Below, piece after piece: positions 4,546 through 57,409 of a stretch of DNA of 64,000 nt. The position numbers and the translations under genes were made by a program. Location: the NCBI RefSeq assembly GCF_044647545.1, contig NZ_CP172818.1; one strand, 5' to 3'. Each line of letters starts with the position of its first letter. Within the stretch, counting starts at the first letter, position 1. The stretch is from Escherichia coli (lineage in GTDB: Bacteria; Pseudomonadota; Gammaproteobacteria; Enterobacterales; Enterobacteriaceae). Under the pieces are notes generated by a model that had not been told where the DNA came from, did not search any database, and was given only the letters and a program-made list of their open reading frames with translations.

Positions 4546-5478
4546 TTACATGACCTGATAGCCTTCGTCGGGCTTGCCCAGCCGTTGCTGGCACCATGCC
4601 GCCAGAAATTCCACGCAGACACGTAATTTCATGCTGCGATAGAGCGGCTCCCGGTAAACAGCCCAGATATTGGCGCTTTGTGCATACTCCGGCAATACTC
4701 GCACCAGTTTGCCACTCTCCAGAAACGGCAACACATCCCACTCGGAACGCAACATAATCCCTTTGCCCTCCAGCGCCCATTGCAACACTATCTCGCCGCT
4801 ATTGGAGGAAAGATGCCCGCTTACCTTCACCGATTTTTTCTCCTGACCGTTCCCCAACTCCCATATTCCGTGGGTCATATCGCGCTCTTTGGTCACCAGA
4901 CAATCATGACGACTTAATTCCTGTAAGGATTGTGGCTGCGGATATTTTTGCAGATACTCAGGTGCTGCGCATAATATTCTTTTATTTTTCGTTAACAGAT
5001 GCGCAATATAATAATCAGGAATTTCGTCATTAATACGAATATCCAGATCAATATTATCCTGCACTAAATCAATTTGCCGATCGAACAATTCAAAATGCAC
5101 CTGTAACTCAGGATAATTGCGCATCAGTTCGGTAATGGCTGGCGCAATATGGCTGCGCCCAAAACCAAAACTGCAACCAATACGAATCATCCCCTCCGGG
5201 CGCGTTTTGATTTGCGTGACGTCATCGACCAGTCGCTGATATTGGGTGAGGATTTCCAGCGCATGCTCGTAACAACGTTGGCCACTTTCAGTCAGCGCCA
5301 CACCGCGAGCGGAGCGGTTCAGCAGCGTTGTTGCCAGCGTATTTTCAAGGATTTGGATCCGCTTGGTGACAAATGCAGGCGTCTGCCCAAGCGTCGCCGC
5401 TGCAGCACTAAAACTCCCGCTGTGGACGATTTCTACCAGTACCTGCAAATCTTTGGCTAAAGGCCAGCTATTCAGCAT
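4546..5478 (-). CDS. ttdR: LysR-family transcriptional activator of L-tartrate genes
   Basis: ORF 310 aa with N-terminal HTH; divergent from ttdA. Confidence 0.85.
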
Positions 5479-16614: not shown

Positions 16615-16700
16615 CGGATGCGGCGTACCCCTACCCCCCCCGTAGGCCTGATAAGATGCGCCAGCATCGCATCAGGCATTGTGCTCCAACCGCCGGATCC
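16615..16700. repeat. REP elements between yqjI and aer
   Basis: cggatgcggcgtacccc...gcctgataagatgcgccagcatcgcatcaggc...ccggatccggcata. Confidence 0.5.
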
Positions 16701-16710
16701 GGCATACCGA

Positions 16711-18231
16711 TTAATGCAGCACCGTCACCGCGTCTTCCAGTCGGCTGGCGCGGTGTTTCACCATCGCCGACACCTGCGCACTCTCTTCCACTAACTCGGC
16801 GTTTTTCTGGGTGATCAGGTTAAGCTCATCCACTGCACGGGTCAGGCTGGAAAGCCCATCGGCCTGTTCCAGCGTTGAATGGCTAATCTGAGCTATCAAC
16901 TGGGTGACGTTTTTTACCTGTGCCACAATATCTTCCATCGTCCGTCCGGCGGCGTGTACCTGCTGCGAACCGGATTGCACCTTATCAGCACTGGCATCAA
17001 TCAGCTTGCGAATATCGTTGGCAGCATTGGCGCTGCGGCTGGCTAAATGACGCACTTCCCCCGCCACCACTGCAAAACCTTTGCCCTGTTCGCCGGCACG
17101 CGCCGCTTCCACCGCCGCATTCAGGGCCAGAATATTGGTCTGAAACGCAATATCGTTAATCAGCGAAGTAATGGTGCCAATGCGCTGGGTACTGTCGGCA
17201 ATATCGTCCATTGTCTTGATCACCGTAGTCATCGCCTCTCCGCCCTGCACTGCCGCATTACTGGCAGTGATAGAAAGTTTATCGGCAGCCGACGCCGTGG
17301 CAGAGTTCTGTTTCACCGACGCCGCCATTTGGTTCATGGTCGCCACCGTTTGCTGAACGTTATCAACTGTCTGCTGGGTATGTTCGTTCAGTTCATCGGT
17401 GCCTTTCGCCAGCGTCTCACTGCCATTTCTGACACTGGACACCTGGCTTGAGACATCGTTAATTAGCCAACGGCACATCAGACCAAGCTGCCCTACCGCG
17501 CGTAATGTCAGCCCCAGCTCATCGCTGCGATTCAGATGCTCAACACTATTACGCTCTCCGGTCGCCACCTTCAGCGCCTGACGGGCGACATTTTCTATCG
17601 GGCGCACAATCTGCCATTCAAAACAAGCGCTTGCCAACAATACCACTAACGCACAGAGGATATACGTCACCACCGGGGCAGCAACAAACCAAAGCATGGC
17701 CGCCAGCAAGATAAACATCAGGGTCATCACGCCACGCGCCCGCCAGCGAAGCGGTAATGAAGGCAGTTTTCCCAACCAACCTTTACGCACCACCAGGCCT
17801 TTATGAATACGCTTACTGGTCCGTCCGGCGTTCAACGCTTTGTACAGCGGCTCCACCGCCGCGATCTCTTCATCCGTCGCCCGGGTACGAATCGACATAT
17901 AGCCACTGATTTTTCCCTCGCGCACCATCGGTACCGCATTGGCCCGCACCCAATAATGGTCGCCATTTTTGCGGCGATTTTTCACGATGCCGCTCCAGGG
18001 CTCCCCTTTTTTCAGGGTGAACCACATATCCGCAAACGCCGCTTTTGGCATATCCGGGTGACGCACCATGTTGTGCGGTTGCCCCTGTAACTCCTGCAAG
18101 GTATAGCCGCTCACCTGCACAAAAGTGTCATTAGCATGAGTGATATAGCTTTGCAGATCGGTAGTGGACATCAGAGTGGTGTCGTCCGCCAGCGGGGTAT
18201 TTTGCTGGGTGACATACGGATGAGAAGACAT
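16711..18231 (-). CDS. aer: aerotaxis receptor (PAS-FAD sensor, HAMP, MCP signalling domain)
   Basis: ORF 506 aa with PAS N-terminus and methyl-accepting chemotaxis signalling domain. Confidence 0.9.
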
Positions 18232-30392: not shown

Positions 30393-30482
<90 letters not shown>

Positions 30483-45390: not shown

Positions 45391-45530
45391 CGCTTAATGT
45401 AAGTCGTAATGACGAAGCCGCCTCTTCAGGCGGCTTTTTCAATCATGCGATTTATATTTTAACAATGGCATACGCATGCATAAAGTGGTATAATAACTTT
45501 GTCTGCCGCATTCCACTCCTGGAGACGCAT

Positions 45531-54081: not shown

Positions 54082-54189
54082 GTGCCGGATGTGGCGTAAA
54101 CGCCTTATCCGGCCTACAAAACACAACAACATCAACAAATTGTGCAATTCGTAGGCCGGATAAGATGCGCCAGCATCGCATCCGGCACG
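54082..54189. repeat. REP elements between yhaL and cyuA
   Basis: gccggatgtggcgtaaacgccttatccggcctaca...gtaggccggataagatgcgccagcatcgcatccggc. Confidence 0.55.
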
Positions 54190-54207
54190 ATACCCAAAAC
54201 CTGGCGT

Positions 54208-55518
54208 TTATCTGGCCTTGCTCGCCATAATCTCGATAATCTGCCGATCCGTTTGCTGCATCGAATGGCTTGCTAACGCACACAGGTTGGCAATCGACTG
54301 CTCAACATCATGCGCCACGATTCCTTCATTGCCGGTCACTGCGGTATCATCCAGCGCCATTAACACCGCTTTCCACGCAGCCGAAGCACTGGTCGAAACC
54401 TTCATCGCGCAGCTGTTCGACGCTCCATCGCAAATCATGCCGCTGACATCGCCGATCATACTGCTGATCGCCATCGAGATGGTTTCATAACGCCCATCCA
54501 CCAGCCATGCCATCCCGGCGGCGGCCCCCATTGCTGCGGTCGTTGCGGCACAAAGCGCAGACAAACGCGGTAACTGGTTATGGATGTAAATCGCGCTCAA
54601 ATGCGAAAGCATCAGCGCACGCGCCAGCCGTTCATCATCCGCTCCGAAGTGTTCTGCTACCACCACCACAGGCATTGTTGCGGTGATCCCCTGGTTACCC
54701 GAGCCGGAGTTACTCATTGCCGGAAGCGTAGCGCCGCCCATACGCGCATCGGATGCCGCGCTGGTACGAATCACAATGGATGAAGAGAGATCTTTCGCCA
54801 GCAAACCGCGCGCGCACTGTTTTTCCAGCGTCGCACCAATATGCAGCCCCCAGTTACCGCTCAAACCTTCCTGCGATAACGCACAATTTAACTTCGCAGA
54901 ATCGAGAATAAAGCGGATCGCCGCAAACGGGACCTCATTGACGAACTTCAGGATCTCAGCCAGCGTCGTCCTGGAAAGCACCGTCAGCGGCGACTCTTGC
55001 TCGCCCTCTGTCACACACGCCTGCTGGGTAAACACCACACCATTGTGCGTCTCAATATGCACAATGTTGGTATGCCCGCCGACAATGGTGACACACGCCC
55101 ACTTCTCACCGTTCCAGACTTTGGCGCGTGAGAAGAGGATTTCATCGCAAGGTTCCTGGATCTTAACTGAGACTTTCCCCGCCGCCAGCAGTGCTTTGGC
55201 ATCGGCAATTGCCTGCGCAGTTGCATCTTTCAGCACTTCCAGCCCGGCGTTAGCATTTCCACCTAACGCTCCCAGCGCCGCCGCAATCGGCAGCCCCACC
55301 ATTCCCGTGCCGGGAACGGTGACGCCCAGACCGTTCTTCATCAGATTTGGCGAAACCCAGGCTTCTACACGTTCAACCGGACCTTCCAGTTCTGCCGCAG
55401 CAACCGCCGCCGCCAGCGCCAGTGAAATCGGTTCAGTACATCCCAGCGCCGGTTTTACTTCCTCCTGAACGGCGAGGATGTAACGCTGCCATAACGGATT
55501 TAAAGTCGAATCAAACAT
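54208..55518 (-). CDS. cyuA: L-cysteine desulfidase
   Basis: ORF 436 aa [34 protein letters not shown]...; matches K-12 YhaM/CyuA. Confidence 0.9.
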
Positions 55519-55545
55519 ATTAAAAACCTTAAAATTTCAGGTAAA

Positions 55546-55935
55546 TCAAGAAAATGCCAGGAACGGAGAAACACAAAGCAACAAACCAGTGACGATAATC
55601 AGGTACAGAGACATCCCTTTGTATTTGTGCAATGCCGGTACTTTGTAAACCAGCCACGCCGGGATCAGGCACCCTACCATGCCGAAAATCGGGCTACAGA
55701 TAGAGGTGAAGCTCAACACCGGTGCGTTCAGTACGATGGCGCTCCAGGCCAGCAAAATGGCGAAAATCATGATGCCGCGCTGAACGAGATTTTCGTTAAT
55801 CTTCTCGGCAGGCATCTTGCGACGCAGGATGTTCATTACGATCCCTTGCGTTGCTTCGCGAAAGCCTAAATAGACGCCAAAAAACGCGGTCATTACTGCA
55901 AAGATATTGAGAATGACGCTGACCCTTTCACCCAC
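55546..55935 (-). pseudogene. cyuP: 3' (C-terminal) fragment of serine/cysteine transporter gene; 5' two-thirds replaced by the GC-rich block
   Basis: ORF 55546..56160 (204 aa): the C-terminal ~130 aa (...VSVILNIFAVMTAFFGVYLGF...LAFS) look like a HAAAP-family transporter tail, the N-terminal ~70 aa are Gly/Trp-rich low-complexity translation of the C/G-rich block; K-12 YhaO/CyuP is 443 aa. Confidence 0.65.
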
Positions 55936-56640
<705 letters not shown>

Positions 56641-56893
56641 GGGCATTACCGAAAGCGTCAAAGAAAATGCTTATCTTATCGATCCAAAAATTAATTACAA
56701 TACAGATTTAAACATAGAGGATTCTAGCTCAGAGGAATTCCTTTCAGATAATACACTAGAGAAAGACGAAAATTCTCCTGACAATTGCTTTGAGGTCGTA
56801 AAATATAACACATATGAAGCTTATAACTCAGAGAAGCAATATTTTACCAGAGAGGACTATACGTATGATTACGACCTTTTAAATGCAATATAG
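56641..56893 (+). pseudogene. yhaC: AT-rich 3' remnant of an ORF convergent with rnpB (probably yhaC in K-12), 5' part missing
   Basis: Stop-free frame ...ITESVKENAYLIDPKINYNTDLNIEDSSSEEFLSDNTLEKDENSPDNCFEVVKYNTYEAYNSEKQYFTREDYTYDYDLLNAI* ending at 56893; sharp switch from ~80% GC to AT-rich at about 56640; assignment to yhaC is from map position only. Confidence 0.35.
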
Positions 56894-56949
56894 ACTTAAT
56901 AATTTCTTACAAAGTCTATTATTAATACCGTAGATATTTATTCATCTTA

Positions 56950-57024
56950 CTCCAAAAGCAAAAACCCGCCGAAGCGGGTTTTTATAAAGCTCCAAAAGCA
57001 AAAACCCGCCGAAGCGGGTTTTTA
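56950..57024 (-). terminator. two tandem 40-bp copies of the rnpB rho-independent terminator
   Basis: ctccaaaagcaaaaacccgccgaagcgggttttta occurs at 56950-56984 and 56990-57024; on the minus strand each reads AAAAACCCGCUUCGGCGGGUUUUUGCUUUUGGAG just 3' of rnpB. Confidence 0.75.
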
Positions 57025-57032
57025 CGTAAAAC

Positions 57033-57409
<377 letters not shown>

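Follow-up and report, generated by a model that had tools for sequence, protein, structure and literature searches.

In Escherichia coli, the cysteine importer gene cyuP (yhaO) and the cysteine desulfidase gene cyuA (yhaM) form one transcription unit whose promoter, located upstream of cyuP, depends on CyuR and Crp (PMC9040844, PMC4699771, PMC5423876, PMC11408624). This promoter is distinct from that of the tdc operon, and cyuPA expression depends on both regulators (PMC9040844); CyuR has a validated site in the DNA upstream of cyuPA (PMC11408624). Cysteine induces yhaO and yhaM in parallel, by 80- to 100-fold (PMC5423876), and a resistance cassette placed in cyuP needed to be taken out again to prevent polarity on cyuA (PMC9040844). 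In some strains of E. coli and Salmonella, yhaM occurs without yhaO, and a yhaM clone that included just 300 bp of upstream DNA worked on p15A multicopy plasmids, as judged by cysteine resistance and lowered cysteine production (PMC5423876). Of the 1,581 genomes of E. coli and Shigella surveyed by Connolly et al. (2016), 3.29% had yhaO scored as a pseudogene, versus 0.44% for yhaM (PMC4699771).

Here, we analyzed a stretch of 64,000 nt of E. coli DNA from contig NZ_CP172818.1 (the window), in which an intact cyuA lies behind a remnant of cyuP. The locus follows the pattern seen in the survey of Connolly et al., i.e., transporter lost and desulfidase kept, but neither the mechanisms nor this deletion is described there (PMC4699771), and our literature search found no paper on this deletion in ST648. 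A sequence-only reading of the same DNA had recognized that cyuA is cut off from a promoter that it normally shares with cyuP, a view of the operon with which the published work agrees. That reading identified neither the probable cause, in which IS1 inserted and 12.3 kb was then deleted, nor the accompanying loss of the entire tdc operon.

Gene content of the cyuA locus

The genes around the break are ordered yqjG-yhaH-yhaJ-yhaK-cyuA, followed by rnpB-garK-garR-garL-garP. The features from cyuA to rnpB are listed below, where L003 denotes the locus of the undeleted close relative FDAARGOS_497 and L001 the IS1-bearing deletion-form locus.

54208..55518, minus strand: cyuA (yhaM), cysteine desulfidase, intact (open reading frame of 436 aa)
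55519..55545, minus strand: cyuP-cyuA intergenic spacer of 27 nt with the cyuA ribosome-binding site, unchanged (sequence reading)
55546..55936, minus strand: 3' remnant of cyuP (yhaO), 391 nt, pseudogene fragment (protein comparison)
55937..56643: anomalous C/G-rich block, 707 nt (composition and comparison with relatives)
56081..56574, plus strand: part of the block colinear with tdcE (L003 20304..21040), in native orientation
56263..56441, plus strand: strongest tdcE-like stretch of the block (blastn versus L003 20602..20815)
56603..56630, plus strand: run of 28 G inside the block
56644..56650: CATTACC, final 7 nt of the terminal inverted repeat of IS1 (comparison with relatives)
56651..56893, plus strand: 3' remnant of yhaC from the right deletion junction onward, 243 nt, pseudogene fragment
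56950..57024: bidirectional hairpin terminator unit of 35 nt in two tandem copies, downstream of rnpB
57033..57409, minus strand: rnpB, RNase P RNA (Rfam RF00010, 318.6 bits)

The CyuA protein encoded in the window is identical at all 436 residues to WP_000460504.1 of FDAARGOS_497, confirming that the gene is intact, and the spacer in front of it is located inside a segment that matches the relative H1 near perfectly. Full-length cyuP is absent from the position directly upstream of cyuA. Residues 319 to 443 alone are encoded there, and all 125 of them are identical to the corresponding part of the 443-residue CyuP. Relatives with the deletion retain 132 cyuP codons, to which the earlier estimate of about 130 comes close, and the equivalent fragment in L001 is annotated as "amino acid permease, incomplete, missing N-terminus." The function of CyuP, cysteine import, is certainly lost.

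Compared with all relatives, one A is missing between positions 55924 and 55925, 12 nt from the edge of the C/G-rich block, which shifts the frame of the outermost cyuP codons. The open reading frame at 55546..56160 had been described as an in-frame fusion of cyuP to GC-rich sequence. Its frame is indeed open over 204 aa, but it does not represent a clean in-frame fusion because of this missing A.

In L003, the cyuP-tdcG intergenic promoter region comprises 274 nt (17879..18152) and falls inside the interval that is absent from the window (L003 16946..29227). Hence, the region upstream of cyuP that carries the CyuR/Crp-dependent promoter (PMC9040844, PMC11408624) is missing along with the 5' part of cyuP, which makes up two thirds of the gene; both had been reported as lost.

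Probable IS1 insertion and adjacent deletion at cyuP

Insertion of an IS element followed by an adjacent deletion is a textbook mechanism. Positions 4598 to 63500 of the window are ~99.99% identical to NZ_AP022098 (WP4-S18-ESBL-09), from which they differ at just a few bases outside the break, and the window shows ~99.99% identity to ST648-like E. coli genomes. Among these relatives, the locus occurs in three states. FDAARGOS_497 represents the intact state, with the order cyuA-cyuP-tdcGFEDCBA-tdcR-yhaB-yhaC-rnpB. The simple insertion state is found in ECONIH1 (NZ_CP009859), where an IS1 in cyuP has the duplicated 9-bp target sequence, CGCTGCGCC, at both ends. The third state, an IS1-adjacent deletion, was detected by megablast in four of 5,426 complete E. 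coli genomes (WP4-S18-ESBL-09, 4973, EC11, and MS14385), in which a complete IS1 of 768 bp lies between the cyuP and yhaC stubs. The IS1 of ECONIH1 is the same copy as that of the deletion-form genomes and agrees with it in insertion site and orientation; unlike the window, ECONIH1 retains the 9-bp duplication, the 5' part of cyuP with its promoter, and the whole tdc region.

The window shares with the four deletion-form genomes the break points in cyuP and yhaC, flanks of ~99.99% identity, an intact cyuA, and the same stubs. It differs from them in having a 707-nt GC-rich block in place of the complete IS1, and also in the 1-nt deletion 12 nt from the junction, in a second copy of the rnpB terminator, and in lacking a CS1-type fimbrial operon between exuT and exuR. 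The deleted interval amounts to 12,282 bp (L003 16946..29227) and includes cyuP codons 1 to 311, the cyuP promoter, tdcGFEDCBA, tdcR, yhaB, and the 5' part, i.e., most, of yhaC.

The junctions were then compared base by base. The left junction, i.e., the cyuP break point, is shared, with 100% identity, by seven complete RefSeq genomes and is identical to that of ECONIH1, indicating that the original insertion junction has been kept at one end of the IS. At the right joint, the IS1 terminus is fused to GAAAGCGTC of yhaC (L003 29228), 12,282 bp away, and there is no target duplication: the two flanks of the element are CGCTGCGCC and GAAAGCGTC. The relatives read ...GGCACCATTACC|GAAAGCGTC at this place, whereas intact yhaC has AGATTAT before GAAAGCGTC. 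In the window, CATTACC, which is absent from intact yhaC, is joined to yhaC at the same base as in the relatives. Only these terminal 7 nt of IS1 are retained in the window, at a joint where four near-identical genomes have the full 768-bp element. The yhaC remnant is 100% identical to both L001 and L003 and is annotated as incomplete, missing the N terminus, in L001. The window cyuP end point coincides with that of the relatives to within 7 nt.

Since the cyuP end point and the CATTACC-yhaC joint are shared with these relatives, the window was assigned to the deletion form. Both of its junctions are identical in four complete genomes of the 5,426 searched. Because the cyuP break point is shared by seven genomes and both junctions by four, the truncation of cyuP is, by this comparison, neither a chance event nor a private misassembly. 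The deletion allele is already present in RefSeq genomes, with its stubs annotated by PGAP as incomplete genes.

A related allele is carried by strain E138 (NZ_AP022351, L004 3047-4162). As in the window lineage, a cyuP stub and rnpB are joined there across an IS1, cyuA is intact, and tdc is gone. Unlike in the window lineage, the cyuP stub is 210 nt long, the yhaC fragment is 63 nt, IS1 is reversed, and the genetic background is a different one (97.9% identity). Judged from these other junctions, the E138 deletion is independent, and loss of the region has thus been recurrent. In strains 361, EC24, and DFL.5, too, IS1 or an IS1-like element sits at or close to the cyuP insertion site of the window lineage, with different sequence beyond it, and the match in DFL.5 overlaps an annotated WbuC-family gene. 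This suggests further IS1-mediated rearrangements from the same insertion.

These data are best explained by a two-step history. An IS1 would have inserted into cyuP at codon 312 in an ST648-like lineage, presumably giving the simple insertion state seen in ECONIH1, and an IS1-adjacent deletion would then have run 12,282 bp from the far end of the element. The outcome is an intact cyuA behind a 0.39-kb cyuP stub, with the cysteine importer destroyed and cyuA left without its only documented promoter. Cysteine-inducible expression has very probably been lost as a result, and the remaining cyuA transcription would be weak and unregulated at most. The GC-rich block most likely falls outside this biology, as a sequencing, assembly, or in silico artifact standing in the place of IS1. 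We consider this account as a whole, comprising insertion, deletion, promoter loss, and an artifact in the IS1 slot, to be likely.

Gene loss of this kind is routine for IS elements, and the finding is real but ordinary. For one ST648-like sublineage, it means that high-flux cysteine import has been lost and that cysteine-inducible H2S production by CyuA has probably been lost with it. The larger physiological loss is that of the whole tdc operon and hence of anaerobic threonine/serine catabolism (fermentation). The deletion could modestly alter gut fitness and the H2S-linked phenotypes of such strains.

Consequences for cyuA expression

The sequence-only reading had predicted that both the import and the detoxification of cysteine would be reduced. 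Import is certainly gone. For cyuA, the published work on the operon makes silencing likely: CyuR-dependent, cysteine-inducible expression has very probably been lost, and any residual expression would be unable to respond to CyuR because the whole upstream region that holds the validated CyuR site has been deleted.

We also considered whether cyuA might still be usefully expressed, either from a promoter in the retained 3' end of cyuP or by read-through from IS1 or rnpB, and regard this as unlikely. The 300 bp of upstream DNA that sufficed for yhaM function on p15A plasmids (PMC5423876) are all kept in the window, CyuA is 100% conserved with no decay, and the existence of strains having yhaM but not yhaO (PMC5423876) is in keeping with such expression. 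The retained 300 bp may therefore contain a weak internal promoter, although plasmid copy number or vector transcription would explain the plasmid result equally well. Against it also stand the treatment of a cyuP cassette as polar on cyuA (PMC9040844), the parallel 80- to 100-fold induction of yhaO and yhaM (PMC5423876), and the deletion of the CyuR site upstream of cyuPA (PMC11408624).

The local sequence was inspected for possible sources of transcription. In a consensus scan of 54100..57100, neither the cyuP stub nor the block showed a sigma-70-like site; the single promoter-like site of this interval is located in the yhaC remnant, and one site corresponds to the chance level. As for read-through, rnpB is the nearest upstream gene now on the cyuA strand, but two hairpin terminator units separate it from the cyuA locus. 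The IS1 transposase gene of the IS1-bearing relatives is directed toward cyuA, which favors continued expression; however, IS1 exerts polarity whichever way it is oriented. Read-through "from the anomalous block," on which the sequence-only reading had thought cyuA might depend, is not a meaningful notion, given that the block is most probably not real DNA and stands where the relatives have IS1.

Nature of the C/G-rich block

The block consists of 47% C and 29% G, has a G+C content of 70 to 80%, and is strongly C-rich on the plus strand. It occupies a slot of exactly 768 nt, the length of IS1, although the stretch that it replaces (L001 6939..7706) is shifted 7 nt to the left relative to IS1 itself (L001 6946..7713). 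Homopolymers of C9, C12, C12, and G28 are present in the block, versus a longest G/C run of 8 in the rest of the window plus 140 kb of relatives (~200 kb in all). The edges of the block decay into C/G low-complexity sequence.

Part of the block resembles tdcE. By blastn, 56263..56441 aligns with L003 20602..20815 at 75% identity (E = 5e-25), in the same strand as in the native locus, and all 35 gaps are in the window. A permissive Smith-Waterman alignment extended the similarity to 56081..56574 versus L003 20304..21040 with a score of 223.5, against a next best of 134; the comparison comprised 90 other segments (134 or lower) and IS1 (103). Nearly every departure from tdcE is a base absent from the block, with a bias by base as well as by strand: counted on the plus strand, 47 to 68% of T, 17 to 41% of A, 9 to 28% of G, and 5 to 8% of C are missing. 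About 740 nt of tdcE is represented in the block, yet tdcE is a gene deleted in this lineage. No template scored above background for the outer 143 nt (55937..56080) and 202 nt (56442..56643) of the block.

Other templates were tried and rejected. The tdcE paralog pflB scored 142.5 and 96, versus 223.5 and 255 for tdcE, and a three-way MAFFT alignment gave column counts of 18, 13, and 12, a gap-rich and unreliable result. A degraded IS1 was discarded because 77 of 400 random E. coli segments score as well under permissive settings and 9 of 400 under strict ones. A 24-nt stretch of the tdcE-derived part (56189-56212) is 79% identical to 56638-56661 at the junction of the block, the IS1 tail, and yhaC; the two share AAAGCGTCAA, probably by chance.

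Database searches gave a consistent picture. The block has no megablast match in the 5,426 complete E. coli genomes, and more sensitive BLAST searches of plasmids and phages returned weak matches to E. coli tdcE and pflB only. Three exact words of 24 to 30 nt from the block are absent from viral_contigs, and one exact 31-mer is absent from metagenome_contigs. Four open reading frames, three largely within the block and the cyuP fusion frame, were absent from a collection of 15 billion proteins. A herpesvirus-like or other foreign origin, suggested by the C-rich repeats, was rejected on account of the absent words and of BLAST matches confined to tdcE/pflB. Beyond the weak tdcE/pflB matches, these searches gave no relative in another organism, plasmid, phage, or virus of the kind that a horizontally acquired or viral insert should have.

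We reasoned that the block is most likely a nonbiological stand-in for IS1, produced during sequencing, assembly, or other in silico processing, because it lacks matches, contains G28 and C12 runs, shows base- and strand-specific loss, and fits an IS1-sized slot. It combines foreign sequence properties with the site of a multicopy repeat, as an artifact would. The 204-aa "fusion" frame is therefore not a gene, and neither the "fusion protein" nor the GC-rich block should be annotated as a real feature; the block is a probable sequence error at an IS1 site. That the junction might be an assembly artifact had been named beforehand as grounds for abandoning the claim of a decapitated operon. The block does look artifactual, but the truncation of cyuP is supported by other genomes, and the decapitation stands.

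Could the block instead be genuine DNA, with IS1 truly replaced by tdcE-derived sequence and the cyuP stub truly fused to it? The sequence is perfect on both flanks in an otherwise high-quality window, and the core of the block has a recognizable biological template in its native orientation. We nevertheless consider this very unlikely. The deletion lineage lacks tdcE, leaving no template in the cell, and the missing bases follow a strand- and base-specific pattern; we know of no double-strand mutational process that would fit such a loss. The G28 and C12 runs are without counterpart in the comparison sequences, the replaced stretch has exactly the length of IS1, the four reading frames tried are absent from the protein collection, and, save for the weak tdcE/pflB similarity, the block is unmatched in the E. 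coli genomes, plasmids, phages, and viral and metagenome collections. A still more remote version holds that part of tdcE was copied by an error-prone, base-skipping, one-strand process and took the place of IS1 in a recent ancestor. Seen from the tdcE sense strand, the base skipped most would be A, which loosely recalls the adenine-specific infidelity of some reverse transcriptases; if true, this would be a new kind of templated mutagenic synthesis at an IS element.

The tdcE similarity could also be read in the opposite direction, as a sign that the whole deletion is an assembly artifact and that the strain has cyuP (or cyuP::IS1) and tdc, with ~12 kb collapsed into a garbled bridge. Such a collapse would account for the tdcE-like sequence, whose orientation and relative order are those of an undeleted locus. 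However, the CATTACC-yhaC joint (L003 29228) is a specific deletion scar present in four independent complete genomes, and ~740 nt of tdcE alone is represented, with no other gene of the 12-kb interval. We hold it to be extremely improbable, and an artifact at the IS1 site of a genuine deletion allele is the reading that we retain.

Other differences from relatives

Several further differences were observed in the window. At 45436|45437 it is without a 5,342-bp CS1-type fimbrial operon (chaperone, major subunit, usher, and tip adhesin), which sits between exuT and exuR in the near-identical genomes WP4-S18-ESBL-09, FDAARGOS_497, and ECONIH1. The empty-site junction had no full-length match of at least 90% identity among complete E. 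coli genomes, and two small differences lie less than 70 nt beyond it (45492, A/G; 45503-45505, +CTG).

Downstream of rnpB, the two terminator copies (56950-57024) are joined by TAAAG with loss of ACTATG, and one copy is present in the four relatives examined. Other E. coli strains, e.g., HYM1, have a different, longer natural repeat at this place. Counting the block itself and the 55924/55925 deletion, the duplication brings the local oddities in this ~1.1-kb neighborhood of the block to three. In ~41 kb, the sole other differences from NZ_AP022098 are GCC versus CGG at 30459-30461, in a REP-like palindrome, and an extra C at 16628 beside a C-run.
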